NCBI GenBank assembly: GCA_963770895.1
Contig: CAVYRF010000002.1
Span: forward strand, 1,856,001 to 1,920,000
Source: an uncultured Acidobacteriota bacterium
GTDB lineage: Bacteria; Acidobacteriota; Thermoanaerobaculia; Multivoradales; UBA5704
Direction of reading: 5' to 3'
Length of the DNA stretch: 64,000 nt
The position numbers were made by a program, and so were the translations under genes. Positions within the stretch are counted from its first letter, which is position 1. The number at the start of each line of letters is the position of its first letter. Of the stretch, positions 37,718 through 56,171 are shown one piece after another. The notes below the pieces were generated by a model, which worked only from the letters and a program-made list of their open reading frames with translations, had not been told where the DNA came from and did no database searches.

Positions 37718-40700
37718 AAGGGCGCTCGCGACGGTGGATCATCCTCGCGGCATTGACTAGCTCTTTCGCGGCTGTGCCAGCAAACGCGCAGCTCGACAAC
37801 ACCTGCATGGTGAGCGCTCTCAACCGCACAGCCCTGGTGGATGATAGCGGCACCTGGCTGCTTGCAAACGTCCCTGCCGACCTGGGACCCTTGCGCATTC
37901 GCGCCACCTGCGTAGCTCCCGATGGCACCGTGCGCTCTGGCGCCTCTGTGAGTCTCTACACGCTGTCGGCGAACGGTACCGTGAGCGTCAAGGACATCTT
38001 ATTTGCAAGTCCGCCGGCGGTGCCCGAGTCTCTTGGGCTCTCATCGCCAGTGAGCAGCTTCGCATCTCGGGGGCAGACGGCGCAGCTCACGGTGATCGCG
38101 AGCAATCCAGATGGCACCACAACCGATGTTTCTGCCGCAGGGCTCGGTACCGACTACCGAACGAGCAATCCGGCCATCGCCACCGTCGACTCCGACGGTG
38201 TGGTCACAGCGCTGGCCAGCGGCAACATCATCATCAGCGCTACCAACGAAGGGTCGCTGGCGGTCCTCCAGCTTCAGGTGGTCCTCTCCGGCAGCACGGT
38301 GGGAGACGGCATCCCGGACGACTGGAAAATCGCCCATGGCCTTAACCCCAATGATCCTCTGGTCGCCTACGAGGACCCCGACAACGACGGACTGACCAAT
38401 CTGGAGGAGTACCAGAACGGCACCGATCCGAACAATCCCGACACGGATGGCGACGGGCTGTCGGACGGCGACGAGGTGCACCTCTATCACACGAACCCGC
38501 TCCTATGGGACACGGACGGGGACGGGATCTCGGACGGGGTCGAGGTGCGGACAGGCAGCGATCCGCTCGACATGCACAGCTTCAACCTGGCGGCGGCGCT
38601 CTCTTCGATCACGGTCTCTCCGGCCGCGTTCACCTTGGTTTTCAATACGGTGAGCGGCCAGGCGTCGCGGCAGCTCGTCGCCACAGGCAACGTCGTCGAC
38701 GGCCGCACCATCGACCTCTTCAATCCGCTCTACCAGACCCAGGTCGCATCGAGCAACCTCGCGGTCGCGAGCTTCGGAGTGCAAGCAGGGCAGGTGTTCG
38801 CTGGGCAGAGCGGCACGGCGACGGTCACGGTGAGCAACGGCGGCTGGTCGGCCGCGTCCACCGTGACGGTGACGACGTTCTCGCCCACGGCCCTGGCTTT
38901 CCTGCCGCTTCCTGGATTTCAGAATGCGGTGGAGGCGGCAGGCGACTTCGTGTTCGTGGCCTCCGGCGGCTTCGGACTGTCGGTTGTGGATGTGACGAAC
39001 CTGCGAGCGCCGGTGCTCGTCGCTCAGGCGCCCACTCCGGGGAGTGCGAACGACGTGCGGGTTTCTGGCACGGTGGCGTATGTGGCCGAGGATGTCGGCC
39101 TGCAACTCATGGACGTGAGCGATCCGGCCCACCCGGCGCGGCTCGGCAGCCTGAGCCTCCCCGACGGCGACCAAGTGCGTCTGGCGGTAGCCGGCAACCT
39201 GGTCTACCTCGCCGACATGAACTTCGGCCTCCGCGTGGTGGATGTGACGAACCCCATGCAACCGGTCGAGGTCGGCTCGCTCGCGCTCGGAGGCACGCCG
39301 CGGTCGGTCGGTCTTGGCGGCACCGGGCTCGGCGGGTTCGCTCTCACCGGATCGTATGCGGTGGTCGCTTGCGGCGATGGGGGCGTGGCGGTGGTGGACG
39401 TGAGCGATCCGACGGCGCCGGCCCTCGTGGGCGCCACGCCGGACGATGCACCGCGCGCCGGCAGCGTCACGGTGCGCGGCCACTACGCCTACGTGGCCGC
39501 CGGCGAGGAGGCGGTCTACGGCGGCCTGCACGTCGTGGAGCTTGCCGACCCGACGAACCCCGTGGAAGTGGGGGCGAGCGAGGACGACCTCGGGGTGACC
39601 CGTGCGGTGCTCCAAGACGGGTTTGCCTTGGGCGCGCAGTTCTTTCTCGCCGCGCAGGTGGCGATCTTCGATGTTAGCGCCGTGCCTCCGGCCTATACGG
39701 CCGTGCTCGACCTCACGACCTTGCCCGGCGGCGAGGCGGTCGTCGCGCCGCGTGCCAATGACATCGCGGTGCGCAACGGCGCGGTCTTCCTGGCGGCCAA
39801 CGGCGAGCAGCTCGGCGAGTTCGCGAGCTATGCGATCGAGCAGGGCGGTCTCTACACGGGCCTCTTCGAGCTGCCGAACGACGGTGACACGACTCCTCCG
39901 ACCGTGGCCCTCTCCGCGCCGACGGCCGGGTCCTCGGTGATGGAGCGGCTGCCCGTGACGGTGACCATGGCGGCACAGGATGAGGTCTCGGTCACCTCCG
40001 TCGGCATCCTGGTGAATGGCGCCCTGGTCGAAACCCTCTACAAGCCGCCGTACCAGGGGACCGTCCACGTGCCGGCCGGGCAGCCGACCATGACGCTTGG
40101 AGCGGTGGCGACAAACATCAGCGGCGTCCAGGCGACGACCACGGAGACGCTCACCGTCCAGCCGTATCCCTTGCCCGTCGCGACGCTCCTTGCGCCCGTG
40201 CCCGGCCAGGTTTTAATCGACGGCACGCCGCTCACGATCGCGGTTGCGGCGAGCGACGCCGTGGCGGTCACGCGGGTCGAGGTCTATGTGAACGGCGCTC
40301 TCGTCGGCACGGCCTTGACGCCGCCGTACCTCTTTCAGGTCACGCTGCCGCGCGGCTCGGCGACGCTCGCGGCGACGGCGTTCGCATACAACGCTCTGGG
40401 GCCGGGCGCGATGTCGGCGCCGGTCGCGGTGACGGTCCAGCCGGACGTGCCGCCCACGGTTGCGATCTTCTCGCCGGCCGACGGCGCGCAGGTGACCGAG
40501 GGAAGCGTGGTCTCGATCGTCGCAGGCGCGAGCGACCTGACCGGAATCGCAAGCGTGCTCTTTGACCTCAACGGCGTCGAGTTCCAGGGCACCGCCACCG
40601 CACCCTACGTTGCCCAGGTCGTGGCGCCGCCGGCGGGCCAGACCATGGTGCTCGATGTCGTCGCGACCGATGCCGTGAACCTGGCGGCGCAGTCAGCACC

Positions 40701-41730
40701 GGCCACCATCACGAGCGTGGTCGATCCGGGAACGGCCGTGAGCGGCACGGTGCTCGATCCGACCGGCGCCCCGGTCTCGGGAGCGAGCATCGTCGTGGTC
40801 GCGGGCGCTTCCTCGGCGAACGCCACCTCCGCTGCGGACGGGTCGTTTACAGTGAGCGGCCTGCCGACCGGGAGCGGCACCTTCGAGGTGAGCGCGGTCG
40901 CCACGGTGGGCGGCTGCCAGGCGGAGGCCGATGCCGAAGTGCCGCCGCCCCCGCCGGGCCGCAATGAATCGCTCGGCAACCTGACGCTCGTCCGGCCTCC
41001 GGCACCGGAGCCCACGGCCGTGACCGGCGTCGTTGTCGGCGCCGACGGCCAGGGGCTCTCCGGCGTCACGGTGACGGTATCGAGCGTCGACCTGGCGGAC
41101 ACCGCCACCGTCCTGAGCGGTCCCGGCGGCGCCTTCCTGGTGCCGGCCTTCCCCGCGCGGGCCTGGACCCTCCAGGCCGAAGCGACGGCCGTGAGCGGCG
41201 GTGTTCTGCTCTCCGCCGCAAGCGGCCTGCATGGCCCGCACGCGGTCGCGGGCGGCACGACGGACCTTGGCACCCTGACCTTGAGCCCCTATCCCTTCAC
41301 CGGTCCCGATCCCTTGACGACGGTCACCGGCCAGGCCACGAACCTCGACGGCTCACCGGCCGCCGGCGCCCAGGTGGTGATCGACGTAGGTGACGGCCAG
41401 ATCGTCGCGATCTCCGCCTCCGACGGAAGCTTCGCCGTTTCCGGCGTGCCCACCCTGCAAGGCGCGCTGAAGATCACCGCCTCGCTCCACCTGCCGTGCA
41501 ACGTGCTCCTGGTTGCCGGCCCCATGACGGTGAGCGAGCTTGTGGCCGGCGGCCAGACCGCCGCGGGTCTCCCGCAGCTCGTGCCCGACCCAGGGCCGCC
41601 GCCGCCGATCATCTTCGCGATGGCGCCGGTCGAAGGGTGGCCCGGGGAGGGGGAGCGGTGCGTAGCCGCTCCGAGCGCCGCCGACGGATGGCTTGCGACG
41701 CTCACGAGCGCGGCGGAGTTCCTGCGTTGA
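37714..41730 (+). CDS. Large secreted protein: Big_2, Ca-binding DxDGDG repeats, LVIVD repeats, Ig-like and carboxypeptidase-regulatory-like domains
   Basis: Signal peptide; SNPAIATVD; DPDNDGL, DTDGDGL, DTDGDGI; repeated L.VVDVS/TNP; three P.V....P..G Ig units; three V.G.V...G.P..GA units. Confidence 0.9.
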   Translation: MKGRSRRWIILAALTSSFAAVPANAQLDNTCMVSALNRTALVDDSGTWLLANVPADLGPLRIRATCVAPDGTVRSGASVSLYTLSANGTVSVKDILFASPPAVPESLGLSSPVSSFASRGQTAQLTVIASNPDGTTTDVSAAGLGTDYRTSNPAIATVDSDGVVTALASGNIIISATNEGSLAVLQLQVVLSGSTVGDGIPDDWKIAHGLNPNDPLVAYEDPDNDGLTNLEEYQNGTDPNNPDTDGDGLSDGDEVHLYHTNPLLWDTDGDGISDGVEVRTGSDPLDMHSFNLAAALSSITVSPAAFTLVFNTVSGQASRQLVATGNVVDGRTIDLFNPLYQTQVASSNLAVASFGVQAGQVFAGQSGTATVTVSNGGWSAASTVTVTTFSPTALAFLPLPGFQNAVEAAGDFVFVASGGFGLSVVDVTNLRAPVLVAQAPTPGSANDVRVSGTVAYVAEDVGLQLMDVSDPAHPARLGSLSLPDGDQVRLAVAGNLVYLADMNFGLRVVDVTNPMQPVEVGSLALGGTPRSVGLGGTGLGGFALTGSYAVVACGDGGVAVVDVSDPTAPALVGATPDDAPRAGSVTVRGHYAYVAAGEEAVYGGLHVVELADPTNPVEVGASEDDLGVTRAVLQDGFALGAQFFLAAQVAIFDVSAVPPAYTAVLDLTTLPGGEAVVAPRANDIAVRNGAVFLAANGEQLGEFASYAIEQGGLYTGLFELPNDGDTTPPTVALSAPTAGSSVMERLPVTVTMAAQDEVSVTSVGILVNGALVETLYKPPYQGTVHVPAGQPTMTLGAVATNISGVQATTTETLTVQPYPLPVATLLAPVPGQVLIDGTPLTIAVAASDAVAVTRVEVYVNGALVGTALTPPYLFQVTLPRGSATLAATAFAYNALGPGAMSAPVAVTVQPDVPPTVAIFSPADGAQVTEGSVVSIVAGASDLTGIASVLFDLNGVEFQGTATAPYVAQVVAPPAGQTMVLDVVATDAVNLAAQSAPATITSVVDPGTAVSGTVLDPTGAPVSGASIVVVAGASSANATSAADGSFTVSGLPTGSGTFEVSAVATVGGCQAEADAEVPPPPPGRNESLGNLTLVRPPAPEPTAVTGVVVGADGQGLSGVTVTVSSVDLADTATVLSGPGGAFLVPAFPARAWTLQAEATAVSGGVLLSAASGLHGPHAVAGGTTDLGTLTLSPYPFTGPDPLTTVTGQATNLDGSPAAGAQVVIDVGDGQIVAISASDGSFAVSGVPTLQGALKITASLHLPCNVLLVAGPMTVSELVAGGQTAAGLPQLVPDPGPPPPIIFAMAPVEGWPGEGERCVAAPSAADGWLATLTSAAEFLR

Positions 41731-41765
41731 CCTCCGGGGATGGAGGGCCGCCGCCGAGCTTACCT

Positions 41766-43349
41766 ATGGGCATCAGCCGGCGGCGCTTGCTCGAAGGCAC
41801 CGCCGCGCTCACGGGCCTCATCGTGGCGCACGGGGCTGGTGCGAGCCCGGTCGATCGAGCGCCCGGCGGCGGCGCCAGGGAATCGGCGCGCGCCGCCGCA
41901 GCACGGCTCGAGGCGGAGCTGCCAGAGCCCACCCACGCCACAAACGGCGACGAAACCGCGCTGCCAGGCTGGATCGCCTGCTATTCCAAGGGACTGCCTC
42001 ACAATGCGGAAGGCGAGGTGGACCCAGCGGCCTATCGGCTGCTCCTGCGGGCGATCGCAAGCCGCGACCCGGCCGACTTCGAGTCCATCCCGCTCGGTGG
42101 CTTCGTGAAGCTCGCGAACCCCCAGGCCGCCCTGGCCGAGAACCTCATCGGCCCCGATCCGGGCCGCCTCGATCTCGTCCCTCCGCCGCGCTTTGCGAGC
42201 GCCGAGCAAGCATCCGAGCTCATCGAGCTTTACTGGCAGGCGCTCCTGCGCGACGTGGCCTTCGAGGACTACGAAACCCACCCCTTGGCTCAGCGGGCGG
42301 CGGCGGACCTGTCGCGCCTGGCCGATTTCAAGGGACCGCGGGCGGCGGGCGGCGCGGTCACGCCGCGCACGCTCTTCCGCGGCGCCGGTGCGGGTTCTTT
42401 GACCGGCCCCTACCTCTCGCAGTTCCTCTACCGCGACGTCTTCCTGCCACCGGTGTGGGTGAAGCAACAGGAGCGCACGGCCGCCGCCGGCATCGACTTC
42501 ATGACCCGGCACGACACGTGGCTCGATTGCCAGAACGGCGCCCTGACCGGGGTGAACCGCTTCGACCCGCACCCGCGCTTCGTCCGCAACGGCCGCGATC
42601 TCGGCGAATGGGTGCACCGCGACTTCACCTACCAGGCGGCGCTCGACGCCTGCCTGGTGCTCCAGAAGCTCGGCGCGCCCCCGAGCGGCGCCAACCCCTA
42701 CAAGCACTCGCGCACCCAGACCGGCTTTGCCACCTTCGGCGCGCCCTACCTCTTCTACCTGCTCGCCGTGGTCACGCAGGTGGCGCTCACCGCCTCCTGG
42801 TATCAGAAGTGGTGCGTGCACCGCAGGCTGCGCCCGGAGGAGTTCGCCGGCAGGGTGGAGATGGTCCGCGCCGGCCGCGCCGCCTACCCGATCGCGCCGG
42901 CGGTTTTGGACAGCGAAGCGCTGGCCGAAACGCTCCGGCGCCACGGCGCGGCGCTCCTGCCGCAGGCGTACCCGGAGGGCGCGCCCACGCACCCCTCCTA
43001 CCCGGCCGCGCATGCGGTGATCGCCGGCGCCGGCGTCACCGTGCTGAAGGCTCTCTTCGACGATTCGCACGAGTTGCCGAATTCCGTGGTCGCCGCCCCC
43101 GATGGCCTCAGCCTCACGCCCTACGCCGGGCCACCTCTTACCGTCGGCGGCGAGCTCGACAAGCTCGCCTGGAACGTTGGCATGGGACGCGATTTCGCCG
43201 GCATCCACTGGCGCTCCGACGTGGCGGCCGGGATCGAGTTTGGCGAACGGGCCGCGGTCGCGGTATTGCGTGAGATGAAGCTCACCGGACACGAGGTCTT
43301 CGCCGGGTTCACCCTGCGGCAATTCGACGGCCGGCGCGTGGCGATCTGA
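41766..43349 (+). CDS. Tat-exported vanadium-dependent haloperoxidase (PAP2 superfamily)
   Basis: MGISRRRLL twin-arginine signal; YSKGLPH, ELYWQAL.RDV, WYQKW.VHRRLRPE, PTHPSYPAAHA, GRDFAGIHWRSD. Confidence 0.9.
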   Translation: MGISRRRLLEGTAALTGLIVAHGAGASPVDRAPGGGARESARAAAARLEAELPEPTHATNGDETALPGWIACYSKGLPHNAEGEVDPAAYRLLLRAIASRDPADFESIPLGGFVKLANPQAALAENLIGPDPGRLDLVPPPRFASAEQASELIELYWQALLRDVAFEDYETHPLAQRAAADLSRLADFKGPRAAGGAVTPRTLFRGAGAGSLTGPYLSQFLYRDVFLPPVWVKQQERTAAAGIDFMTRHDTWLDCQNGALTGVNRFDPHPRFVRNGRDLGEWVHRDFTYQAALDACLVLQKLGAPPSGANPYKHSRTQTGFATFGAPYLFYLLAVVTQVALTASWYQKWCVHRRLRPEEFAGRVEMVRAGRAAYPIAPAVLDSEALAETLRRHGAALLPQAYPEGAPTHPSYPAAHAVIAGAGVTVLKALFDDSHELPNSVVAAPDGLSLTPYAGPPLTVGGELDKLAWNVGMGRDFAGIHWRSDVAAGIEFGERAAVAVLREMKLTGHEVFAGFTLRQFDGRRVAI

Positions 43350-43414
43350 GAAGCCGCGACCCGGCAGCGCGCAAGGGTCGACGGCAAAATCGACGTCGGG
43401 GGTCCGGCGCTCGG

Positions 43415-43685
43415 TAGCGGTTCGCGGCCTCCACGGTGCGGCTGTCGCCGACAGCCAGCAGATCGGCGTAGGCGAGGACGGCCGGCATCACGCCGCGCTC
43501 CTCCCCGGCGTCGGCGAAGTGCCAGAGCTTCTTCAGCACCTCGACCTGGCCGTCCTCCGCTCCTTTGAGGCGCTGGTGGATCAGCAGCTTTGCCGGGACC
43601 GCATCCGCGTACAAGGTCAGCGTCCCCGGTTTCAGGAAGCCCGTCAGCCGCGCGCACGGCGGGCACATCGCCGAGCACCGCCGCT
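43415..43685 (-). pseudogene. Remnant of type IV TA AbiEi-family antitoxin (C-terminal part)
   Basis: ARLTGFLKPGTLTLY...RL....DGQVEVLKKLW...PAVLAYADLLAVGDSR..EAA; apparent frameshift just upstream (VLGDVPA in another frame); no N-terminus and no AbiEii toxin. Confidence 0.7.
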
Positions 43686-43911
43686 GCTGAAGTTGCCCCG
43701 ATCGCGACGCGCCTGACGGCGCGTGCGCAATCGGGCCGGGGGGGCGGACGAGGCGTCTTGCCACGCAAGAGGGTTTGCGGCGATGAGGGCGTAGGGAATC
43801 TGGCCGAACGGCCGCCGGGCGAAGGAGGCCGCCGTCGACGTGCTCATCGAGCGCTTGTTTGGCCCGCCGCCACCTGCTGATCCGGCTGCTGACTCGACGG
43901 CTGGATCGCAC

Positions 43912-45426
43912 TCAGGGTGCAGGGACCCCAAGATGGGGTGAGCGACCGAGGAGTCGCAGCGCTGCGCGCGCTTGCTCGACCGTGGCCGCCTCCTTACGGG
44001 CCGCGTCCAGGAAGAGCCGCAAGCTCACCAGGGTTTCGCGCTCGATCCCCGCAGCGGCTAGGACCCAGCTCATTTCCGCTGCCAAGCGGCGCACTTCGTT
44101 GAGGCGCCCTTCCTCCAGGTTGAGGATGGCCAGCTCAAGCGACACGATCGCCCTGGCAAGGCTATTCCGGTGCGCCGCAAGCTGGTTGCGCACCTCCTCG
44201 AAGGCAGCGCATGCTTCCTCGCGGCGTCCGCAGCCTGCAGCCACGCGTCCGCTCAGCCACCTGACGCGAACCAGATCGAGGTCGTTCCCGTGGTCGAGAG
44301 CCACCTGGTGGAGGCGAGACAGCTTGGCCTCGACCTCGGCATGTAGGCCCAGGTGGCACAGGTTGACGCAAAGGTTGAAGTCCAGCGACCAGGCAAGATG
44401 AGGCTCGCCGCCGTTCGCGATCAGCGGCGCAGCTTCGCGCAGGACCTCGACGGCGGCGGCCGCGTCTCCGGTCTGCTCCAGCATAACGGCGCGGCTAAGG
44501 AGGATCCGGCCTACCGCAATGGGCGGCGCCAACGTTGCGGCGCGGTCCAGCAGGTCGAAGGCCGCCTCGAACTGGCGCGCGTCGCGCCGCAGCGAGGCTT
44601 CCAGATCGAGCAGGCGCCACTCTTCGAGAAGACCGCTGCTTTCCTTCGCGCCCTCGCGCCACAACCGCCAGACGGCTGCAAACTCCGCCCCTGCTCCCGC
44701 AAGGTCGCCTGCCACGCGCCGCGCATTGCCGACAAACGCCCGCGCGTAGGCCAGCAGCCTTCGACGCCAATGCTCGTCAACCGGAGCGAGCTCTGCCACC
44801 AAAAGGGCGAGGTGGGCCAGGTCGAGGGCTGCCGCTGGCGTCTTCAGGGCTGCCCGCGCGCTCTCATCGCACAGCCGCTCTGCCAGCGCCCAGGTCTGGA
44901 ACTCGCTCCCCTGCTCGACCAGCCAGCGGCGCTCGGCGGCAGCGCAAGGGGCGAGCCTGTCCCAGGCGCGCGCCGCGTCCTCGCGGTCGCGTGGCGACGG
45001 CTCCTTGCGGTGCATCGCCGCGACCTGTGCAGCCTCTGCGGAGCCGGTGAGCGCCTCGAAGCGGGCAAAGGCCGTAGCGATGGCGCCGCGGACGGCGGCC
45101 TCCAGAGCTGGCTGGTCTTCCGGTTCAAGGTCATCGCCGGGTTGAAGGTGGTCCAGCGGCGGGCGGCCATCCGGCGCGGCGGTGGCTTTCTCGCGGGCGG
45201 CGCGCAGGATGGGCAGCAGTCGGCGCTCGACCCATGGGATGGGTAGGCCCACGGCAGCCGTGATCCGCTCCAGGGCGTCCGGGGTCAGGGTGTCGCCCGC
45301 CTCGTATCGTGACACCGAGTTCTGCGAAAGGCCGGCCGCCCTTGCAAGGTTTGTCTGATCCCAGCCGCGCAAGGCGCGCAGCACCTGCACCAGCAGCCGT
45401 CCTTCCTCGTCTCGATAGGGGGGCAT
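43912..45426 (-). CDS. XRE HTH - TPR-like regulator (paralog 1)
   Basis: GAGGAGG RBS before MPPY at 45426; HTH LRALRGWDQTNLARAAGLSQNSVSRYEAG; helical body with TWALAERLC and RLLDLEASLRRD. Confidence 0.9.
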   Translation of the reverse strand: MPPYRDEEGRLLVQVLRALRGWDQTNLARAAGLSQNSVSRYEAGDTLTPDALERITAAVGLPIPWVERRLLPILRAAREKATAAPDGRPPLDHLQPGDDLEPEDQPALEAAVRGAIATAFARFEALTGSAEAAQVAAMHRKEPSPRDREDAARAWDRLAPCAAAERRWLVEQGSEFQTWALAERLCDESARAALKTPAAALDLAHLALLVAELAPVDEHWRRRLLAYARAFVGNARRVAGDLAGAGAEFAAVWRLWREGAKESSGLLEEWRLLDLEASLRRDARQFEAAFDLLDRAATLAPPIAVGRILLSRAVMLEQTGDAAAAVEVLREAAPLIANGGEPHLAWSLDFNLCVNLCHLGLHAEVEAKLSRLHQVALDHGNDLDLVRVRWLSGRVAAGCGRREEACAAFEEVRNQLAAHRNSLARAIVSLELAILNLEEGRLNEVRRLAAEMSWVLAAAGIERETLVSLRLFLDAARKEAATVEQARAALRLLGRSPHLGVPAP

Positions 45427-45464
45427 GGCGTCGCCTCCTCGGCGGTATAGGGTCCTATTCACGG

Positions 45465-45491
45465 AAAAAGTGTATTTTTAACCTCTATCAT
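45465..45491. promoter_or_regulatory. Divergent promoter/operator between regulator and peptide gene
   Basis: AT-rich inverted repeat AAAAA-GTGTA-TTTTT (45465-45479), containing TACACT on the minus strand; TATCAT on plus at 45486. Confidence 0.4.
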
Positions 45492-45570
45492 CGACCGGGA
45501 TCGTCATGGAGCAGGCCCCGCTCGCGCCACTTCCGGCCGCGAGCGGCGGTGCCACAGGAAAGGACTTCTC

Positions 45571-45996
45571 ATGTGCTACAGGAACTCCCGTCGCATTCTC
45601 GCCTCCGCGGTCGTACTTGCCCTGGCTGTGTGGGCGGGCGCGCCCACCTTGCTGACAGCTGCCCCAGCTTCCGCCTTCGGCCTCCCGGCGGCCCAGAGCG
45701 CTCAAGGTCTCGACGTTCTGAACCAGGTGCGCCTCTGGCTGAGCACCAGATGGCCTTGGACGGGGTCCAGCGCCGATGGTGCTGCATCGCGACATGCCGC
45801 TAGCGTGAAGCCGCAGAATTCTTGCTCGTCTGACCCGAACGGCCAGCATTGCACCAATGCCGTCATCCCGCAGAACGCCTGCGCGTCGGATCCGAGCGGC
45901 CAGCATTGCACCAACGCCCTCATCCCGCAGAACTCCTGCGCGTCCGACCCGGACGGCCTGCAATGCAGCAATGCTGTCAGGCCACATCATTCTTGA
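45571..45996 (+). CDS. Secreted precursor with three 19-aa Cys-x2-DPxG-x2-Cys repeats
   Basis: AAAGGA RBS; signal peptide (RRILASAVVLALAVWAGA); Trp-rich amphipathic linker; repeats PQNSCSSDPNGQHCTNAVI, PQNACASDPSGQHCTNALI, PQNSCASDPDGLQCSNAVR. Confidence 0.85.
   Translation: MCYRNSRRILASAVVLALAVWAGAPTLLTAAPASAFGLPAAQSAQGLDVLNQVRLWLSTRWPWTGSSADGAASRHAASVKPQNSCSSDPNGQHCTNAVIPQNACASDPSGQHCTNALIPQNSCASDPDGLQCSNAVRPHHS
45811..45981 (+). repeat. 3 x 57-bp coding tandem repeat
   Basis: Units start at 45811, 45868 and 45925 (ccgcagaa...); many differences are synonymous. Confidence 0.9.
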
Positions 45997-46133
45997 GGCT
46001 CGGACCCGAGCGGCAGTCAGCGGTGCCCGGATTAGCTGAAGCAGCATGCGAGTGCGGCGCATAGGGTCTGACGCAGCGCCCTGACGGTGAACGCGTCCCT
46101 TGTGGCAGCCATCCTCGATTCCTCGCCGCACCA

Positions 46134-46158
46134 GCCGGAGCCCGGTTGCGGCTCCGGC
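46134..46158. terminator. GC hairpin between convergent genes
   Basis: gccggagc-9 nt-gctccggc, 15 bp past the stop of the 46174 gene; no U-tract. Confidence 0.3.
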
Positions 46159-46173
46159 GCCTCGGCTGGTCTC

Positions 46174-48030
46174 TCACGGTACGCGCCCCCAAAGGCGCGG
46201 TGATCGACCGAGGAGACGCAGCGCCGCGCGTGCCTGGTCGATCGTCGCCACCTCGCGGCGCGCAGCCTCGCAAAAGAGCCGCAGGCTCGCCAGGACTTCG
46301 CGCTCGACGCCCTCGGCGGCGACGATCCAGCTCATCTCCTTCGCCAGGCGGCGAACCTCGGCGAGCTGCCCGTCCTCCAAGCAGAGGACGGCGAGCTCAA
46401 GCGACACGATCGCAGAGGCAAAACCGTTGCGATGGGTCGCAAGCTGCTCCCGCACTCGCTCGAAGGCGGCACGTGCCTCCTGCCTGTCACCCATGCCCCC
46501 CGCGACACGGCCGCTCAGCCAGCCGATACGCACAAGATCCAACTCGTTGCCGAGATCGAGCGTTAGCCGCTTCAGGCCCGGCAGCTGAGCCGCCGCCTCG
46601 GCGAATTGACCGAGGTGGCAGAGATTGACGCTCCAATTGAATGCCAGCGACCATTCCAACGCTGGCTCGCCGAGTGCGCGCACCAGGGGTGCGGCCTTTT
46701 GCAGCGTGACCAATGCGGCAGTCGCCTCACCTGCCTGCTCCAAAGTGACGGCGCGCTTGAGCAGTATGCGCCCAGCGGCGATCGGCGGAGCCCCGGCCAT
46801 GGCCCGGTCGAGGAGGTCGAGAGCTGCTGCGAAGCTCCGCGTATCGCGGCGCAAGGATGCCTCCAGATCGAGCAGGCGCCATTCGGGAAGGATGGCGGTC
46901 GGGTCTCCGGTGGCACCTTCGCTCCAGAGCCGCCAGACAGACTGCCACTCGGCGCCGGCCTGTGCCAGGTGGCCCTCGACGCGTAGTGCATTGGCCAGAA
47001 ATGCTCGGGTAAAGCCTTCCAGCCGGCTGCGCCATGCGTCCGAGCCGGTGATTATCCGCGCCGCGGCGCTTGCAAGCCGCGCCAGCTCCAGCGCCATGGC
47101 AGCGCTTCTGCGCGCGCAACGCGCGCTCTTTTCGGCCAGCCGCTCGGCGAGTGCCCAGGTTCGATACTCCAGGCTGTGCCCGACAAGCAGCCGGCGCTCC
47201 TGGGATGTGCTCCGCTCCAGCCGCTGCCACAACCTGCCGGCCTCGGCGCGAGCGCGGGCAATACGGTGGGTGGCGGCCTGGGCGCGGATGCAGGACTGCG
47301 TGAGGATGGCGACCTCGGTCGCCAAGTGGGCCGCAGCCTCCCGCCCACGGCAGGCTTGCAGCGGTGCGGTGGCTCCGGCGACGGCACTGCCGTTCACACC
47401 TGGACGAGCAAGGCCGAGGGCCGCGATGGCGGCGAGCGCAAGATCGGCTTCGGCCGGGGTGTAGTCCATTGCACCCACCAGGCCCTCGAACCGCGCGCGC
47501 TTCAGCTTGCGACTGCCGCGCTCATAACCCGAGATTTGGGAGTTTGGCACACCGGCCGCCTCTGCCAGGTCCTGTTGGGTCCAGGCCAAGCGCTGGCGTA
47601 ACCAGCTGAGGGCGATCCCTAGCGCCTGCGACGGGCGGGCCAGCGCGTCCTGGCCGGGCGCGCGGCGGGCCTGGAACAAGGGTTGGGCCAAGCCGGCGAC
47701 CTCAACCGCGAGATGCGCCGCGGTCTGGCGGAGGTAGCGGACTTCCAGCGGCGGCGCGGCGGCTGGATGGGACGGTTCGCAGGCTTCGGCTTCACGGCCG
47801 ACCGCGACCACGACCATGTGTACGAGGTCGACTTCGGAGGGAGTGTAGCCCATGATCTCGGCGAGCTGCCGGAGGCGCCGGCAACTGAGCTGACGGGTGC
47901 CCCGCTCGTAGGCCGAGGAGTGGGCCTTGGAAATGCCAGCGGCCTTTGCCAGCTGCCGCTGCGTCCATCCGGCGTGCTCGCGTAGCCAGGTCAGGACGAT
48001 GCAACGGGACTGCGGGGGAGTCCTAGTCAT
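46174..48030 (-). CDS. Double XRE HTH - TPR-like regulator (paralog 2)
   Basis: Two HTH units (WTQRQLAKAAG...YERG and WTQQDLAEAAG...YERG); C-terminal body closely similar to paralog 1. Confidence 0.9.
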   Translation of the reverse strand: MTRTPPQSRCIVLTWLREHAGWTQRQLAKAAGISKAHSSAYERGTRQLSCRRLRQLAEIMGYTPSEVDLVHMVVVAVGREAEACEPSHPAAAPPLEVRYLRQTAAHLAVEVAGLAQPLFQARRAPGQDALARPSQALGIALSWLRQRLAWTQQDLAEAAGVPNSQISGYERGSRKLKRARFEGLVGAMDYTPAEADLALAAIAALGLARPGVNGSAVAGATAPLQACRGREAAAHLATEVAILTQSCIRAQAATHRIARARAEAGRLWQRLERSTSQERRLLVGHSLEYRTWALAERLAEKSARCARRSAAMALELARLASAAARIITGSDAWRSRLEGFTRAFLANALRVEGHLAQAGAEWQSVWRLWSEGATGDPTAILPEWRLLDLEASLRRDTRSFAAALDLLDRAMAGAPPIAAGRILLKRAVTLEQAGEATAALVTLQKAAPLVRALGEPALEWSLAFNWSVNLCHLGQFAEAAAQLPGLKRLTLDLGNELDLVRIGWLSGRVAGGMGDRQEARAAFERVREQLATHRNGFASAIVSLELAVLCLEDGQLAEVRRLAKEMSWIVAAEGVEREVLASLRLFCEAARREVATIDQARAALRLLGRSPRLWGRVP

Positions 48031-48090
48031 CAGTCACCACGGCCAGCAGGAGTGCCCCCCGGGCGCCAGCTCCACTTGGGAAGTCCTCAT

Positions 48091-48412
48091 TTGCGAACCT
48101 GCGCGACCAGAACAAAGATCCTCCATGGCGATGCAGAGGATTTTACGCGAATGCTCTCGTTGCGCAAGAGCAACCAAATGCTTTTTCGTTGCAAACAGAT
48201 ACATCTCCTGGTCATCAAGGTCAAAAATTCTCCTCTTGCGTGTATGGCAAACCTTGCGCAGTACTGAGTGGGGCGTGCGGGACGTAGAGGCTTCTTCATC
48301 TGGGGTAGAGCGTCGCGGGTGGAAACCTCGATACCTCACCGGCGGGCGCCTACCGCTGGGGCGTCAATTTGCGTGAATATGTGTATTGCAAACTTTTTTA
48401 GGCTTTGCGAGC
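48091..48412. promoter_or_regulatory. AT-rich divergent control region with repeated TTGCR boxes
   Basis: TTGCG or TTGCA at 48091, 48160 (palindrome TTGCGCAA), 48189, 48236, 48254, 48369, 48386 and 48405. Confidence 0.45.
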
Positions 48413-48507
48413 GCGCCAGGTCGTCGCCTCACTATTCTCCGTGGCGGGTAGACATCGGTGGCGGTTATCGGGGCCGCGACTCTCGTCTGCCATAAGGATG
48501 CCCTGAG

Positions 48508-49134
48508 ATGCGCGACCATGATCCACGAAACGAATGCGCCGGCCACGTCGAAATCGACCTCATGGCGCGGCTGCTGACCGCTCACGCGCAGGACGAGGAC
48601 GTCTACCAACGCTTGCTGCCGCACATGGTCGGCCAGTGTCCCGAGTGCAGGCAGCTCCTTGTCGAGTTGGAAGAGCTGCGCCGTGAAGCGGCGGCGCCGG
48701 ATGCCCTGATTGCCGCGACCGAGTGGCCGGCGGCACCCGGCCTGTGGGGGCGGCTGGCGCCGCTCCCCTTCGAGGAACAGCTGCGGGCAGCCGCTGCGGA
48801 CGAAACCCTTCACACCTGGGGGCTCTGCCGCCTGCTCCAGGTCAAGAGCGGCGGCGAGGCGCGCGAGCATCCGGCGGCGGCCGGCCGGCTTGCCCAGCTG
48901 GCCTTGGTGATCTCCGAGCACCTGGCCAAGGCGCAGGAGACCGCGGAGCTGGCCAAGGAGCTGAGGGCCATGCCGCGGGTGGACCGCCTGCATGCTGCCG
49001 CCCCAGCGCGCCCTGACCGACCGTCTGCTGAAGCACCACGGCGAGTTCGAAGACCCGATCGGTGCCGCACGCGCATGAGCGAGGAGCTGCACTTCCGCCG
49101 CGGCCAGATGGTGCTGAGCGATGGGCGCTCCTGA
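48508..49134 (+). pseudogene. Truncated member of the same TPR-like family with an N-terminal zinc-finger-like motif instead of HTH
   Basis: H....CPECR; LWGRL..L..EEQ...LHTWGLCRLL...S matches the paralog motif TWAL.ERL...S; similarity is lost after about residue 140. Confidence 0.6.
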
Positions 49135-51214
49135 ATCCGTATCAGGCGACGCCTGTCCCGCCAACGGCGCTACGCCCACGCCCAACCACGCAGGCAAGGG
49201 ACGTCATCGCGAGCGGCCCGGTGCTGCCCAGGGCTTAGTGGCGCAGGCACTGACGCGCCGCCATCGCCCACCGTTGGGCCTTGCGCTTTCGACCTTGCGG
49301 GCCATTATGGGATGGTCGCAAACGGCTCTTTCCAAGGCCAGCGGCGTCGCCACCAGCCAGATCTCGCAATACGAAAGTGGCGCAATACGCTTGACTCGCG
49401 CTCGCTTCAACGAATTCGGCGCGGTCATGGGTGCCAGGGAGGGACTTGGCGAGTGCGCAGTCGCGACCTGCGCGCTGTTGGCTGCCGTAGCTGCCCCGGC
49501 GGGCTCAGTGCCGCCAGGCGATCTGACCCATGACGAGCGGCAGCAAGTCGACGCGTTCGTATTAAACATGTTGCCTGCGTTGGCGGAACTTGTTCAGGAG
49601 CACGCCACCGCAACGATCATGATGCGGCGCGTCGACGTAGCGCAGCAGGAAGCTGAAGCACATTGGCACGCGCTGGCGACGCTCTCCCATCAGCAGCGGC
49701 GCCAACGATTGGAAACCGGTTTGCATCTACAAACCTGGGCCATGTGCCTACGCCTGTGCGACGCGAGCGTTGCCGCCGGCGCGCACGGCGCCGCAGAAGC
49801 CATGCAGCTTGCTGAGCTGGCCGTGCGCGCAGCGCAACTGGCGCGGGGTGACGCTGGCTGGCTGTTGCGCTTGCACGGCTACGCGCGCGGATTCCTTGCC
49901 AATGCGTTTCGGTTGAGAGGGGATCTTGCGGCGGCCGATGCAGAGTTCGCTGCGGCAACGCGCCAGTGGGAGGACGGGCATCAGCCCGCGGAATTCGCGC
50001 TGCCGGAATGGCGATTCCTCGACCTGGAATCGTCCCTCCGCCTTGCGCAAAGAAATGGGCCTGCCACAGTGACCCTGCTCGACCGAGCCATCGCCCTTGC
50101 TCCCGCAGGGCAAACTGGCCGGTTGCTGGTCAAGAAAGCGACGGCCTTACGGCTCGCCGGCCAGGTCGACGCTGCGCTCGTTGCATTGGACGCGGCGGCG
50201 CCCCTGGTCAAGTTGCGGCCAGACGTGCAGTGGATGGTGCAGTATCACCAGGTAGCGTGTTTGTGCCAGATCGGGCGCTACCGAGAGGCCGACGAGTGCC
50301 TGGAGAACGTGGGTGGTGCGCTTGTCGGTGAGTCGACTTTGGACATCCTCCGGCGAATGTGGCTCACGGCACGTGTGACCGCAGGTCAGGGCGATCCGCG
50401 ACAAGCGATCGCCGATCTGGAATGGGCGCATACGGAGCGCATGCAGTTCGCCGGTCGCTATGAGTTGGTCCTGGTGTCGATCGAGCTGGCGATTCTCTAT
50501 CTTGACGAAAGGGTGGGGGACTCGGAAAAGATTCATCGCTTGGTTCAAGATGCCTTGGAAATCGTCCAATCTCGATGGAGCTCGCGAGGCCTGACCACCA
50601 GCCTTGGCGACTTAAGTCAGTCAGCTGGGAAGCTACGTCAGCTTCACGAAGCCGTGGAGCTTCTGAGGGTGGAAAATTGGGTCTTCGAGCCCTTGACGGC
50701 GGGCGGTAGCCAGCGCATGGCGCACATCCCCCTTCTGGAACAGGCCGATACGGTTTCGATTCCCGACGAAATGAGCGTCCTGGTGCGCTTGGTGCGCGCA
50801 ATCCCTGGAATGAGCCAGGAGGGGATGGGCACCGCAGCGTCGATCGACCGCACTACGATCAGCCGCTACGAGACGGGCGACATGATTCCCTCGCGGGTGC
50901 ATCTCGGGCGCCTTGCCTCTGCTGCTGGTATCTCACTCCCGCTGTTGGAGGGTGTGCTGCTGCCGATGGTCCGCGTTGTGTGTGCCAGGAGGGCCTGTTT
51001 GCACAGACCCTGGTTGCTGGCGCAGCAAGCTGGTGAGGTGGCTGCTGCGTTCGATCGGCAATTGGTTGCCACCATGCGCGCAGCCGTCGCCACGTTTGCA
51101 GCGACTCTTCGGTGTCGTCCTGCTGTGGCTGCTCAACCTTGCCGGCCATCGGATGTACCGCCGTGCGACGCACAGCAGGCGCCGGCGCAAGGCGCGGGCG
51201 AGATGGCCAGATGA
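49121..51214 (+). CDS. XRE HTH - TPR-like - second XRE HTH protein (paralog 3)
   Basis: HTH WSQTALSKASG...SQYESG; TWAMCLRLC, EWRFLDLESSLR; C-terminal HTH MSQEGMGTAASIDRTTISRYETG. Weak GC3 bias; start uncertain. Confidence 0.8.
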   Translation: MGAPESVSGDACPANGATPTPNHAGKGRHRERPGAAQGLVAQALTRRHRPPLGLALSTLRAIMGWSQTALSKASGVATSQISQYESGAIRLTRARFNEFGAVMGAREGLGECAVATCALLAAVAAPAGSVPPGDLTHDERQQVDAFVLNMLPALAELVQEHATATIMMRRVDVAQQEAEAHWHALATLSHQQRRQRLETGLHLQTWAMCLRLCDASVAAGAHGAAEAMQLAELAVRAAQLARGDAGWLLRLHGYARGFLANAFRLRGDLAAADAEFAAATRQWEDGHQPAEFALPEWRFLDLESSLRLAQRNGPATVTLLDRAIALAPAGQTGRLLVKKATALRLAGQVDAALVALDAAAPLVKLRPDVQWMVQYHQVACLCQIGRYREADECLENVGGALVGESTLDILRRMWLTARVTAGQGDPRQAIADLEWAHTERMQFAGRYELVLVSIELAILYLDERVGDSEKIHRLVQDALEIVQSRWSSRGLTTSLGDLSQSAGKLRQLHEAVELLRVENWVFEPLTAGGSQRMAHIPLLEQADTVSIPDEMSVLVRLVRAIPGMSQEGMGTAASIDRTTISRYETGDMIPSRVHLGRLASAAGISLPLLEGVLLPMVRVVCARRACLHRPWLLAQQAGEVAAAFDRQLVATMRAAVATFAATLRCRPAVAAQPCRPSDVPPCDAQQAPAQGAGEMAR

Positions 51215-51232
51215 CACGTGTGCGCAATTTGG

Positions 51233-54200
51233 TCAGGAGCGCGGCGGCGGGGTCGCGGCCGGCGGGCGCGCTGCCCGGACCGCCGTCAGCCGGTGCAAGC
51301 CTCGCGGCGCGTCGTTCCATTCGACCAGCAGCTGGTGGCGCTCCGCCGGCGCCAGCAGCGGCAGCTCCGCCAGCGGCCGGCCCGGCGCGGCGGCGCCGGC
51401 CCGCAGCAGGCTTTCGAGATGCGCCAGCAGGCGTGCCATGGTCGCGGCGTCGAACAGGTCCGTGCTGTACTCCAGGTAGAAGTCGACGCCGGCGCCGGCC
51501 TCGGAGGCGAACAGCGCCAGGTCGAACTTGGCGGACCCGGTGTCCGGCACCGCGGCGTTCCTGGTGGTGATGGCCAGGCCGGGAATCCCGGTGCCCGGGC
51601 GCGGAAAGTTCTGGAACGTGAACATCACCTGGCATAGCGGGTTGCGGCCGAGGTCGCGTTCCACCTGGAGTTTTTCGACCAGCATCTCGAACGGCAGGTC
51701 CTGGTGCGCGAAGGCGCCCAGCGCCACGTCCCGCACCCGGCCCACCAGCTCGCCGAAACCGGGGTCGCCGGCCAGGTCGGTGTGCATCACCACCACGTTG
51801 ACGAAAAAGCCGATCAGCGCTTCGGTTTCGCTGCGCCGGCGGTTGGCGACCGCCGAACCGACGACGATCCGCGTCTGGCCGCTGTAGCGGGACAGCAGCG
51901 CCTTCCAGCCGGCGAGCAGCACCATGTACAGGGTCGCCCCCTGTGCCCGCGCCAGCTCCCTGAGGCTGGCGACCAGGGATGCCGGGATCGTCAGCCGGGT
52001 CCCCCTGCCGCGAAACCTCTCCACGGCCGGCCGCGGGCGGTCGTGCGGCAGCTCGAGATCGGCCGGGGCCCCGGCCAGGTGGTGCAGCCAGTAGCCGAGC
52101 CGGTAAGCGAGCGCTTCCCCCTGCAACCAGCCGCGCTGCCAGACGGCGAAGTCGCCGTACTGGATCGGCAGCTCGGGCAGCGGCGAGGGCGCCCCCTGGG
52201 CAAACGCCTGGTACAGCGCGACCAGCTCGCGCTCGAAGACGCCGATCGACCAGCCGTCGCAGGCGACGTGATGCACGTTGAGCAGCAGCACGTGCCGCTC
52301 CGCCGCCAGGCGCAGAAACTGGGCGCGCACCATCGGTCCGCAAGCGAGATCGAACGGCCGCGCCGCCTCCTGCCGCGCCAGCCGCGCCACCTCGGCCGCG
52401 GCCGCCGCGGCCGGCAACGCTTCCAGGTCGACCCGCGGGACGTCGAGGCCCGCGGCCAGCACGACCTGGAGCGGCGCCCCCTGCGCTTCCCGGAAGACGG
52501 TGCGCAGCGCCTGGTGGCGGCGCACGATCTCGCGCAGCGCGGCGGCGAAGGCGGACAGGGAGATGGCTCCGGCCAGGTCGAAGGCGTGAAACATGTTGTA
52601 GAAGGGGTTGTCCGGCACCAGGCGATCCAGGAACCAGAGGCGCTGCTGGGCGAACGACAGCACCCGATCGCCGGGTTCCGCGAGCGGTACCAGGGGCGGC
52701 ACCGCGCCGACCCCGCCGCTGCCGCGGATCGCCTCCGCCATCGCCGCCAGGGTAGGCGCCTCGAACACCCGCTGCAGCGGCAGCTCGCTGCCGCAGGCGT
52801 CGCGGACCCGCGACACCAGCTGGGTGGCGAGCAGCGAGTGGCCGCCCAGCGCGAAGAAATCGTCGTCGATCGAGACCGCGGGCAGCTCGAGCAGGCTGCA
52901 CCAGATCGCCGCCAGCATCTCCTCCACGGCATCGCGCGGCGGCGTCAGCTCGCCGCCGGCCGCGTCCGTCGCATCGCCGGCGCCGACCGCCGCCAGGTCC
53001 GCCAGCGCCTGGCGGTCGATCTTGCCGTTCGCGGTCAGCGGCACCCCCCCCGGCAACACCCGGACCACCGGCACCATCGGCTCGGGGAGCCGGGCGCGCA
53101 GGGTGCGGGTGATGTGGGCGGCGTCGAGCTCGGCGTCCTGTTCGCCGGCCAGGTACGCCACCAGGCGGCGGTTGCCGCTCGGGTCCTCGCGCGCCTCCAC
53201 CACCGCCTGGCTCACCCCAGGCAGCTGTTCGAGCACCGCTTCGATCTCCGCCGGCTCGACGCGCATGCCGCGCACCTTGATCTGGCGGTCGCTGCGGCCC
53301 AGCAGCTCCAGGCTGCCGTCCGGCCGCCAGCGCGCCAGGTCGCCGGAGCGGTACAGCCGCTCGCCCGGCGCCGCGGCGTGGGGGTCCGGGACGAACCGCT
53401 CGGCGGTGAGCCTGGGCTGCCGCAGATAGCCGCGGGCCAGCGGCGGGCCGCCGATCGCGAGCTCGCCCGCCACCCCGATGGGCACCGGCTCGCGGCGGGC
53501 GTCCAGGACCTGGATGCGCGCGCCGGGCACCGGCCGGCCGATGGCGGGCAGCTGCGGCCAGTCGCGGCTGGCGCCTGCCAGGCGCAGCGCCGTCACCACG
53601 TGGCTTTCGCTGGGACCGTAGTGGTTGTGCAGCGTGCAGCCGGGCATGCGCGCCAGCCACTCGGCCACCGGCGGCGTGATGCGCAGCGTCTCGCCGGCGG
53701 CGACCACGTCGCGCAGCGCGCCGGCCGCCGGCGTGACGCGCCTGGCGGCCGCCGCCAGGGATTGCAGCGCCACCATCGGCAGGAAGATGCGCGCCACCTG
53801 CTCTTCGTCGATCAGGCGCAGCAGCCGCTCGGGGTCGCGCCGCACCTCCTCGGGAATCACCACCAGCTCGCCGCCGGAGCACAGGGTCGACAGGTCTTCC
53901 TGCAGCGAGACGTCGAAGCCGGGGGCGGCAAACTGCAGCGTCCTGGCGGCGCCGGGCAGCTGGCCCGGATGCCACCGCAGCAGGCAGTCGAGCGTGCGCC
54001 GAGGCAGCGCCACCCCCTTGGGAGCGCCGGTCGAGCCCGAGGTGTAGATGACGTAGGCCAGGCTCTCCGCCACGGCCGCCGCCGCGCCCTCCTCCTGCTC
54101 CGCCGCGGCCTCCTCCTCCGTGGGCTGATCGCCCGGCGGGTCGGACGCCGCCTCCTGGCGCCAGGTCTCCCAATCCACCTGCGGCCCCTGCTGCCAGTCC

Positions 54201-56164: not shown

Positions 56165-56171
56165 GCTGCCG

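Follow-up and report, generated by a model that had tools for sequence, protein, structure and literature searches.

The locus and its genes

The 64,000-nt stretch of DNA analysed here (the window, G000:C2:1856001-1920000) is part of the 8.16-Mb genome of an uncultured soil bacterium of the Acidobacteriota; the genome has 71% GC and lies on three contigs. Between window positions 43912 and 48030 it holds three genes, regA (−), pep (+) and regB (−). The product of regA (43912-45426, −) is a 504-aa regulator that combines an XRE-type helix-turn-helix (HTH) domain with tetratricopeptide repeats (TPR), and the gene is transcribed divergently from pep (45571-45996, +), which encodes a 141-aa peptide precursor. 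On the other side of pep lies regB (46174-48030, −), encoding a 618-aa paralog with two N-terminal XRE HTH domains and the same TPR body; regB converges with pep, their stop codons 177 nt apart. The three genes are one copy of a multi-copy cassette of Thermoanaerobaculia that pairs a peptide with putative receptors, and in our judgement the chances are about even that it works like RRNPP quorum sensing, here in a diderm phylum.

The open reading frame (ORF) of regA spans 43912-45462 (−), but its likely start is the ATG at 45426, which has GAGGAGG ahead of it; the resulting 504-aa product is identical to a public gene call. A gap of 144 bp (45427-45570) separates regA from the pep ATG at 45571. 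The original prediction, made from the sequence alone, had described an XRE-HTH/TPR gene divergent from a small gene across a 144-bp gap with an AT-rich inverted repeat, a close paralog convergent on the other side, and a signal peptide and repeated C-terminal cores in the small gene product. All of these are present: regB is 52% identical to regA over 486 aa, and the precursor has a basic and hydrophobic N-terminus, judged by eye, and three 19-aa units. A third paralog, regC (49121-51214, +; 697 aa, one HTH at each end), is given here for context only and may belong to a larger cassette unit. Six contigs from three studies, labelled soil metagenome or with a coded organism, carry the stretch 43912-48030, and none of them has an RNA source.

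Linkage of peptide and regulator genes

The genome carries seven canonical cassettes and three degenerate or diverged ones. Paralogs of pep were found by tblastn at further genome loci, each between regulator paralogs. In the six-frame translation the pattern C..DP.G.{1,4}C matches 29 times; 19 of these matches fall in seven loci, all beside regulator paralogs, and the remaining ten are scattered singletons, one of them running across stop codons. A hidden Markov model (HMM) of the N-terminal part of pep returned the same seven loci and two diverged ones, and the leader model described below added a tenth, degenerate one.

The association was also approached from the regulator side. With regA alone as query no related loci were found; a 12-row regulator alignment gave 66 loci (363 kb), chosen only by the regulator motif. 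A motif-bearing ORF lies within 2.5 kb in 60 of the 66, against about 0.4 expected from the 10 matches per 8.16 Mb outside cassettes in this genome, scaled to 363 kb. At some of the six misses the locus ends at a contig end. All 66 loci come from Thermoanaerobaculia or Acidobacteriota metagenome-assembled genomes (MAGs), one of them labelled Holophagales. The co-occurrence of DPxG peptides with this regulator family, which the original prediction had put forward, is therefore real: the linkage is far beyond chance.

From the peptide side, the HMM matched 24 of 41 related genomes (this genome counted), including 21 of the 24 other genomes of the same family; many weaker matches were not inspected. 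It returned 19 external loci, of which 15 have a clear precursor and all 19 have regulator homologs. These clear external precursors share a signal-like N-terminus, a motif of the type L-W-x-x-L-x-x-x-W and one to four loops. One locus, L026, was rejected as a precursor, its regular-expression match being an Arg-rich wrong frame.

Regulators and peptide gene are encoded on opposite strands. A convergent regulator is present at 61 of the 61 pep genes whose 3′ flank measures 1.7 kb or more, its aligned end a median of 77 nt past the pep stop, and a divergent regulator at 45 of the 55 with enough 5′ flank; both figures are inflated, as a regulator had been the means of selecting most of the loci. 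Among loci found through the peptide the figures are 13 of 15 for the convergent and 10 of 15 for the divergent regulator, within a flank of only 1.5 kb. The divergent arrangement singled out at first is thus common, but the conserved minimal unit is the convergent regulator plus the peptide gene. About nine of the 66 loci are regulator-peptide arrays with two peptide genes. In the ten loci compared in this genome, the only further gene family that recurs is that of a TPR-like protein without an HTH.

An all-helical protein of about 400 aa without a Pfam match stands beside regulator clusters in five of the ten compared loci and not in the window (L001:8804-10207, L004:7701-9116 and 313-1518, L005:6756-8525, L007:757-2790, L009:7582-8499); it has faint similarity to the regulator body (E 0.013).

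For the wider distribution, 401 genomes sampled across the phylum were scanned with a strict DNA pattern that requires two cores in tandem, the reversed pattern serving as control. The strict pattern gave six matches in this genome, three in one of two other genomes of the same family, and none in 36 others from its order or class. In the rest of the sample only singles or doubles appeared, in 19 genomes, and most of the 19 outside matches listed do not read as in-frame tandem cores; the reversed control gave scattered single matches, about nine over the 401 genomes. Because the strict pattern recurs in the family of this genome and is chance-like elsewhere, the cassette is concentrated, among the genomes searched, in one family-level group of Thermoanaerobaculia. 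One verified cassette (L029) belongs to another family of the order.

The peptide precursors

The N-terminus of the pep product (aa 1 to about 22-35) has a basic n-region, a hydrophobic core and AxA-like sites, and by eye resembles a signal peptide. It is followed by a Trp-rich motif, W-L-S-x-R-W-P-W (aa 56-63, nt 45736-45759), and the C-terminal part consists of three tandem 19-aa units and a four-residue tail. The units are encoded by a 57-nt tandem repeat (45811-45979, 3.0 copies, 82% matches), and each holds a Cys-loop core, C-x-S-D-P-x-G-x-x-C, at 45823-45852, 45880-45909 and 45937-45966 (+); the three cores are candidate mature peptides. The exact pep sequence is absent from the public protein collection, and a word-indexed protein search with it gave 230 candidates, none at E≤0.01. 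In the ESM Atlas the nearest clusters are unnamed proteins of about 130 aa, with Acidobacteriota as the commonest phylum and scores of 0.86-0.88, which serve as leads only.

The anatomy of the family was drawn from 84 distinct precursors with 201 loops. Eight precursors have one core, 43 have two, 25 have three and eight have four. AxA-like sites, a basic n-region and a hydrophobic core are present in all aligned precursors. Conservation resides in the loop cores, and in 67 of the 84 the last Cys stands 2-4 residues before the C-terminal end. Nine-residue loops make up 150 of the 201, with the consensus [E/T/A]-G-C-x-I-D-P-[N/D/S]-G-[R/G/L]-C. At the two variable positions that follow the first Cys, identity is 65% among the cores of a single precursor (166 pairs), as against 26% between precursors (19,886 pairs).

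Departures from the loop occur. In L085 Glu replaces Asp (C-x-x-E-P-x-G-x-C). Variant peptide genes in which one or both cysteines are missing, but the signal-like N-terminus and ...[LM]DPNG... are retained, lie at C2:5719271-5719525 (−), C2:2881179-2881550 (+) and L009 at about 1070-1334 (−); the three degenerate or diverged variants end in ...DPNGG(G), one or both cysteines being lost. The C-x2-DPxG loops of the original prediction, which took them to be disulfide-closed, are present three times in pep, whereas the usual loop of the family is the nine-residue C-x-I-D-P-[NDS]-G-x-C and some variants are Cys-less. Because some variants have no cysteines at all, the disulfide is perhaps dispensable, and going by these sequences it may not be essential.

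The regulator family

In regA the HTH_3 domain (PF01381) is matched at E 3.5e-9, with 37 bits against a cut-off of 23, and TPR_8 is matched below threshold. The HTH covers about aa 16-65 (nt 45232-45381) and the TPR superhelix about aa 145-495 (nt 43942-44994). At the same gathering cut-off of 23, HTH_3 scores 78.3 bits in regB and 54.1 bits in regC, with two domains in each. Reading of the regulator sequence revealed neither a transmembrane segment nor a signal peptide.

A search with regA against 1.84 billion representatives gave 4080 proteins at E≤1e-3, 667 of them at E≤1e-30. Among the 95 family members aligned, HTH_3 is found in 88 and TPR_12 in 83 (E≤0.01). Within this genome regA is nearer to paralogs in the regA position (58-60% identity) than to those in the regB position (46-52%). 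Divergent and convergent regulators did not separate into clades in a FastTree phylogeny of 100 regulator bodies, where the position label changes 26 times, against 26-30 in five of 200 shuffles, a weak test because in tandem arrays one regulator is divergent to one pep gene and convergent to the next.

Other forms of the regulator were seen. The relatives P0002, P0004, P0009 and P0012 are of double length (1090-1159 aa), their two or three matched stretches being fused tandem regulator bodies. Proteins of the regC type occur in four copies in the genome at 72-75% identity (window 49121-51214 (+), C2:1822245-1824197, C2:4274525-4276573 and C2:5559708-5561786), three of them adjoining cassettes, and are mutually far closer than the regA and regB paralogs (46-63%). 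Isolated, near-identical fragments of regulator C-termini lie at C2:57766-57933 (98% over 56 aa of regA), C2:364907-365209 (76% over 101 aa of regC) and C1:627222-627371 (88% over 50 aa of regC); as sequences they suggest recent duplication or decay of cassette copies.

The predicted regulator fold

The AF2 model of regA has a pLDDT of 90.4 and a pTM of 0.76. It places the HTH helices at residues 6-59, then two long linker helices with a low-confidence stretch at 81-140, and then paired helices over residues 145-495, forming seven or eight helix pairs. With this model Foldseek returned LGN/Pins TPR domains first (E about 1e-4), followed by the Rap-peptide complexes 4gyo, 4i9c and 8rtc. The model was also compared with 48,161 chains by VIA-align, and 50 matches were listed. 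LGN and APPBP2 (both Z 21.5) and Pins (Z 20.5) are joined by NprR-NprX (4gpk, Z 20.2, 295 residues aligned at a root mean square deviation of 4.6), a phage Rap with peptide (8rte, Z 20.2), APC6 and Cut9 (Z about 19-20, listed at 19.9), RapI (4i1a, Z 19.0), 6t3h (Z 17.6), PlcR-PapR (2qfc, Z 16.1), MalT domain III (Z 15.3) and AimR (Z 14.8). PrgX has no structural match in the listed rows.

The PlcR-PapR match covers model residues 6-435 and so includes the HTH; Rgg, the other fold that the original prediction had proposed for comparison, is not among the 50 matches listed, which excludes nothing. The TPR groove that had been postulated is supported in part, by a confident superhelix that matches NprR, Rap, PlcR and AimR, but generic eukaryotic TPRs match equally well. 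According to the model, then, the regulator body is of the peptide-binding TPR shape, with RRNPP receptors among the best matches and not apart from generic TPRs. Because LGN and subunits of the anaphase-promoting complex (APC) match as well as RRNPP receptors do, the fold alone is no proof of RRNPP kinship.

Eight polar residues are nearly invariant in the family (N234, R237, R271, S278, N351, D384, R387 and W390), and in the AF2 model all of them, W390 included, stand in the first helix of successive repeats. The first helix of TPR repeats generally lines the groove. Co-folding of the regA TPR body (residues 140-504, 95-row alignment) with the pep repeats (76-141, six-row alignment), run without controls, scored 0.10 and 0.00 against a mark of 0.32.

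Intergenic elements

Two short inverted repeats lie between regA and pep. ATAGG-GT-CCTAT (45447-45458) stands beside the regA ribosome-binding site and is a candidate operator; AAAAA-GTGTA-TTTTT (45465-45479) has only 5-nt arms of A/T. The latter is part of an AT-rich box of 19 nt, A5-GTGTA-T5-AACC (45465-45483), set in DNA of 68-70% GC. A search of the 8.16-Mb genome that allowed up to three mismatches placed this box at the four cassettes of greatest similarity and nowhere else; among these close paralogs it is identical in three and has one mismatch in the fourth. Such conservation makes it probable that the box is a core-promoter and/or operator element shared by the divergent regA and pep genes. 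Related cassettes have other AT-rich palindromes in the same place, namely ACATA-N3-TATGT, GTGGA-TTTT-TCCAC-like and TGCAA-N6-TTGCA, and we read the palindromes between divergent starts as candidate operators and/or core-promoter elements. A consensus scan of 45300-46300 for sigma-70 promoters and for terminators found no site of either kind. Ahead of the pep ATG by 6 nt is a Shine-Dalgarno-like sequence, GGAAAGGA (45557-45564, +); in 74 aligned upstream regions GAAAGGA or AGGGAG is kept at this position.

A conserved leader hairpin

Downstream of the AT-rich palindromes, a conserved leader some 70 nt long precedes most of the peptide genes. A structure was derived from single-sequence folds and examined on 32 sequences, in which 84.4% of cells are paired, against 41-54% with slid partners; changes on both sides occur in 13 of 24 pairs, a value reached by one of 500 shuffles. 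A covariance model, R1, built from those 32 sequences was then run over 401 kb of held-out loci and gave 28 matches at E≤1, of which 25, by their coordinates, stand immediately ahead of an ORF for a Cys-loop peptide. The remaining three are followed by ORFs with a signal-like N-terminus and no loops: one degenerate (L009), one truncated (L030) and one diverged (L065).

For 23 of the held-out matches, which are mutually related and were aligned by fitting to R1, the paired fraction of cells is 80.7%, compared with 68.6% in shuffles. Both sides change in 19 of the 24 pairs, the covariation score is 0.363 (0.185 shuffled, 0.04-0.10 slid), and on each of five measures the observed value was reached by none of 500 shuffles. 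G-U pairs are frequent in the leader, for which reason an RNA structure is favoured over a DNA palindrome. In the outermost helix, the weakest at 64% paired, a U/C-rich stretch pairs with the Shine-Dalgarno sequence. RNAalifold predicted no pairs on a gappy 74-row alignment, and Rfam has no match at E≤1 in window 43000-52000. The conserved hairpin is a candidate new cis-regulatory RNA.

In the window, a GC-rich inverted repeat with 9-nt arms, 11 nt apart, lies in the pep leader (45518-45546, +), with at least one compensatory change among four paralogs; it is probably the counterpart of the hairpin conserved in relatives. R1 did not detect this leader, whose fold is no more stable than shuffles (z −0.55), and over the whole genome it gave no match among the 150 candidates scored, out of about 24,600 at first look. 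The leader structure is accordingly well marked in relatives and weak in the window copy.

Neighbouring genes

Directly downstream of regA a 200-aa ORF (43309-43911, −) matches AbiEi_2, a regulator family like type IV toxin-antitoxin antitoxins, at E 1.4e-17; the match covers only profile positions 56-135 of 143 and the ORF is possibly a fragment. Farther out, window 37714-43349 (+) encodes a secreted-looking surface protein of 1338 aa with Asp-rich repeats like thrombospondin type 3 and weak matches to CglD, MtsD and Amuc_1099 models, followed by a 617-aa ORF like the PAP2 superfamily (sub-threshold).

On the regB side a 208-aa ORF without a Pfam match (48508-49134, +) overlaps the start of regC by 14 nt. 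It carries an H-x4-C-x2-C motif as well as a segment similar to the beginning of the regulator body, and in locus L005 a homolog occupies the equivalent place ahead of a regC-like gene. Large non-ribosomal peptide synthetase (NRPS) genes follow at 51233-62723 (−), with Condensation, AMP-binding and PP-binding domains in 51233-56164, in a block of 75% GC; the block converges with regC, 19 nt between the stops, and is not repeated at other cassettes.

Interpretation and rival explanations

From the genes and their domains, the predicted fold, the conserved linkage, the diversification of paralogs, the cis elements and the leader covariation, we infer signalling steps as follows. Going by its N-terminus, the pep product would be made as a Sec-exported pro-protein, and its C-terminal tandem units would be cut into short peptides that centre on x-[ILM]-D-P-[NDS]-G, in most cases with a disulfide closing the loop. 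These peptides would accumulate outside, re-enter the cell and bind the concave TPR groove of the cytoplasmic regA and regB proteins. Peptide-bound regulators might then interact differently with the AT-rich palindromes that separate regA from pep, and so change cassette transcription, while the structured 5′ leader might add a second, post-transcriptional control on pep, acting on translation or stability. Several traits are those of pheromone precursors: C-terminal cores, loop residues alike within and different between precursors, and many diverged cassettes per genome. That the cis elements are private to the cassettes also counts in favour of the signalling reading.

A more specific form of this reading, which we advance tentatively and as somewhat short of an even prospect, is that the cassettes are the first quorum sensing of a diderm phylum by peptide pheromone and cytoplasmic TPR receptor. 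Each genome would hold up to about ten private channels, in each of which a Sec-exported precursor yields several copies of a DPxG nonapeptide, usually disulfide-closed, that is read by one or two flanking XRE-TPR receptors, its production being gated by a hitherto undescribed structured 5′ leader that masks the ribosome-binding site.

Several points weigh against signalling. The case for secretion of the pep product comes from reading its sequence by eye. For signalling in a diderm cell, a peptide of about 1 kDa would need two passages through the outer membrane and one through the inner membrane, and no conserved transporter or protease gene was found in the compared cassettes. Two or three regulators go with one peptide, unlike the classical one-to-one pairs, and tblastn with the regulator body finds about 45 related regions in the genome against 10 peptide genes, so that many paralogs have no peptide gene nearby. 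RRNPP-specific Pfam families were found neither for regA, regB and regC nor among the 25 families listed for the 95 aligned members, and the 60 listed PDB sequence matches of the regulator include no RRNPP chain. The RRNPP families are themselves mutually divergent, so that kinship may exist without a sequence match. The equal fold match of unrelated eukaryotic TPRs, with LGN, APPBP2 and the APC subunits in the range given above, belongs here as well.

The same excess of regulators, about 45 paralog regions to some 10 peptide genes, and the failure to find a cassette-linked importer or protease in the ten loci compared lend some weight to a peptide that acts only outside the cell, in competition or as an antimicrobial, as a metal- or surface-binding loop array or like a protease inhibitor, the XRE-TPR proteins being ordinary local regulators whose TPR serves oligomerisation or other sensing. 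XRE regulators adjoin many kinds of cargo gene, the TPR fold is generic, and nine-residue disulfide loops are a common scaffold of extracellular bioactive peptides. We nevertheless regard this as rather improbable, if the most serious competitor: a TPR receptor of the peptide-binding type almost always stands beside the peptide gene, every cassette has the same tiny cargo gene and no genes for immunity, export or maturation, and the Cys-less variants ending in ...DPNGG(G) suit a short linear ligand better than a loop array.

If pep were instead a multi-core precursor of a ribosomally synthesised and post-translationally modified peptide (RiPP), its cores would be modified at Cys, Asp or Asn-Gly by enzymes encoded elsewhere and the regulators would control a natural-product pathway. 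The tandem near-identical cores after a conserved, leader-like Trp-rich motif and the nearby NRPS genes agree with this, but no modifying enzyme recurs in the ten compared genome loci, the NRPS neighbourhood does not recur at the other cassettes, and a Sec-type N-terminus would remove the precursor from cytoplasmic tailoring enzymes; we think such a pathway quite unlikely. We hold it very unlikely indeed that the cassette is a module of selfish or defence type, spreading within the genome as an antitoxin-like XRE repressor paired with a harmful small protein. The cassettes are highly multi-copy, the AbiEi_2-like fragment abuts regA, and the HTH has sub-threshold matches to HipB, MqsA and Y4mF antitoxin models; these matches, however, are to the generic HTH only and fall below curated cut-offs, the small protein has an export signal (by eye) and no toxin-like domain, and the regulators carry a 350-aa TPR sensor, which antitoxins lack.

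The proposal of RRNPP-like signalling in another phylum, with which the analysis began, is partly supported: of its refuting conditions, neither a lack of co-occurrence nor a lack of the TPR fold came true, and the related loci come from Acidobacteriota MAGs; it is qualified by loops that are not always Cys-closed, by a divergent layout that is not constant and by a generic fold. If the signalling reading is true, peptide quorum sensing extends to diderm bacteria, the question is raised how such peptides cross two membranes, and defined, synthesisable molecules become available to probe mostly uncultured soil organisms. The many diverged cassettes per genome would then offer a natural system for studying the evolution of signal-receptor specificity.

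Comparison with known systems

Among the closest counterparts of the cassette are NprR-NprX and PlcR-PapR of the Bacillus cereus group. These share with it an N-terminal HTH_3 domain and a C-terminal TPR superhelix (Z 20.2 and 16.1, respectively), an adjacent gene for a small exported-looking product whose conserved part is C-terminal, and the occurrence of several diverged cassettes with cassette-specific peptide residues. They belong to Bacillota, whereas the cassette is found in diderm Acidobacteriota and has no sequence-level match to them. It also differs in usually having two flanking receptors, in a peptide gene that lies on the opposite strand and converges with one receptor, and in a precursor that holds one to four tandem cores, mostly Cys-closed 9-mers, behind a structured 5′ leader.

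Rap-Phr systems of Bacillus, its phages and plasmids resemble the cassette in the TPR fold (8rte, 4i1a and 6t3h above) and in the many paralogous cassettes per genome, and their precursors are Sec-exported and cut to short C-terminal peptides, as is proposed for pep. Rap proteins, in contrast, have no HTH and act on response regulators, and the phr genes follow rap on the same strand. In PrgX/prgQ of the Enterococcus plasmid pCF10 the receptor and peptide genes lie on opposite strands, as here, close enough for transcriptional interference; the cassette differs in its phylum, in having no listed structural match to PrgX and in showing no sign of antisense RNA.

Outside bacterial signalling, the eukaryotic proteins LGN/Pins, APC6/Cut9 and APPBP2 give the best or tied-best fold matches and bind extended peptides in a concave groove, but they are scaffolds without an HTH, unlike the cassette regulators; the fold likeness is therefore to the general peptide-binding TPR shape and not to RRNPP specifically. 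In heterocystous cyanobacteria, which are diderm, PatS and HetN are the source of short, gene-encoded peptides that signal to HetR, a DNA-binding regulator in the cytoplasm. HetR is not an HTH-TPR protein, and that system has no Sec signal, tandem Cys loops or multi-copy cassettes.

RRNPP systems are described in PMC10075063 as a feature of Firmicutes/Bacillota and their mobile elements; the use of gene-encoded peptides as signals for cytoplasmic TPR receptors counts there as typical of Bacillota with their phages and plasmids. All the related loci found here lie outside that range, in Thermoanaerobaculia or Acidobacteriota MAGs, and full-text literature searches, whose scope did not extend to supplements, found no paper describing such a system in Acidobacteria. 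The architecture is nonetheless that of RRNPP, in which an HTH- and TPR-bearing receptor has beside it a small, exported-looking precursor with C-terminal cores. Because the architecture agrees while the taxonomy does not and no sequence relatedness is detected, we file the cassette as one that may work like RRNPP systems, and not as a member of that family.

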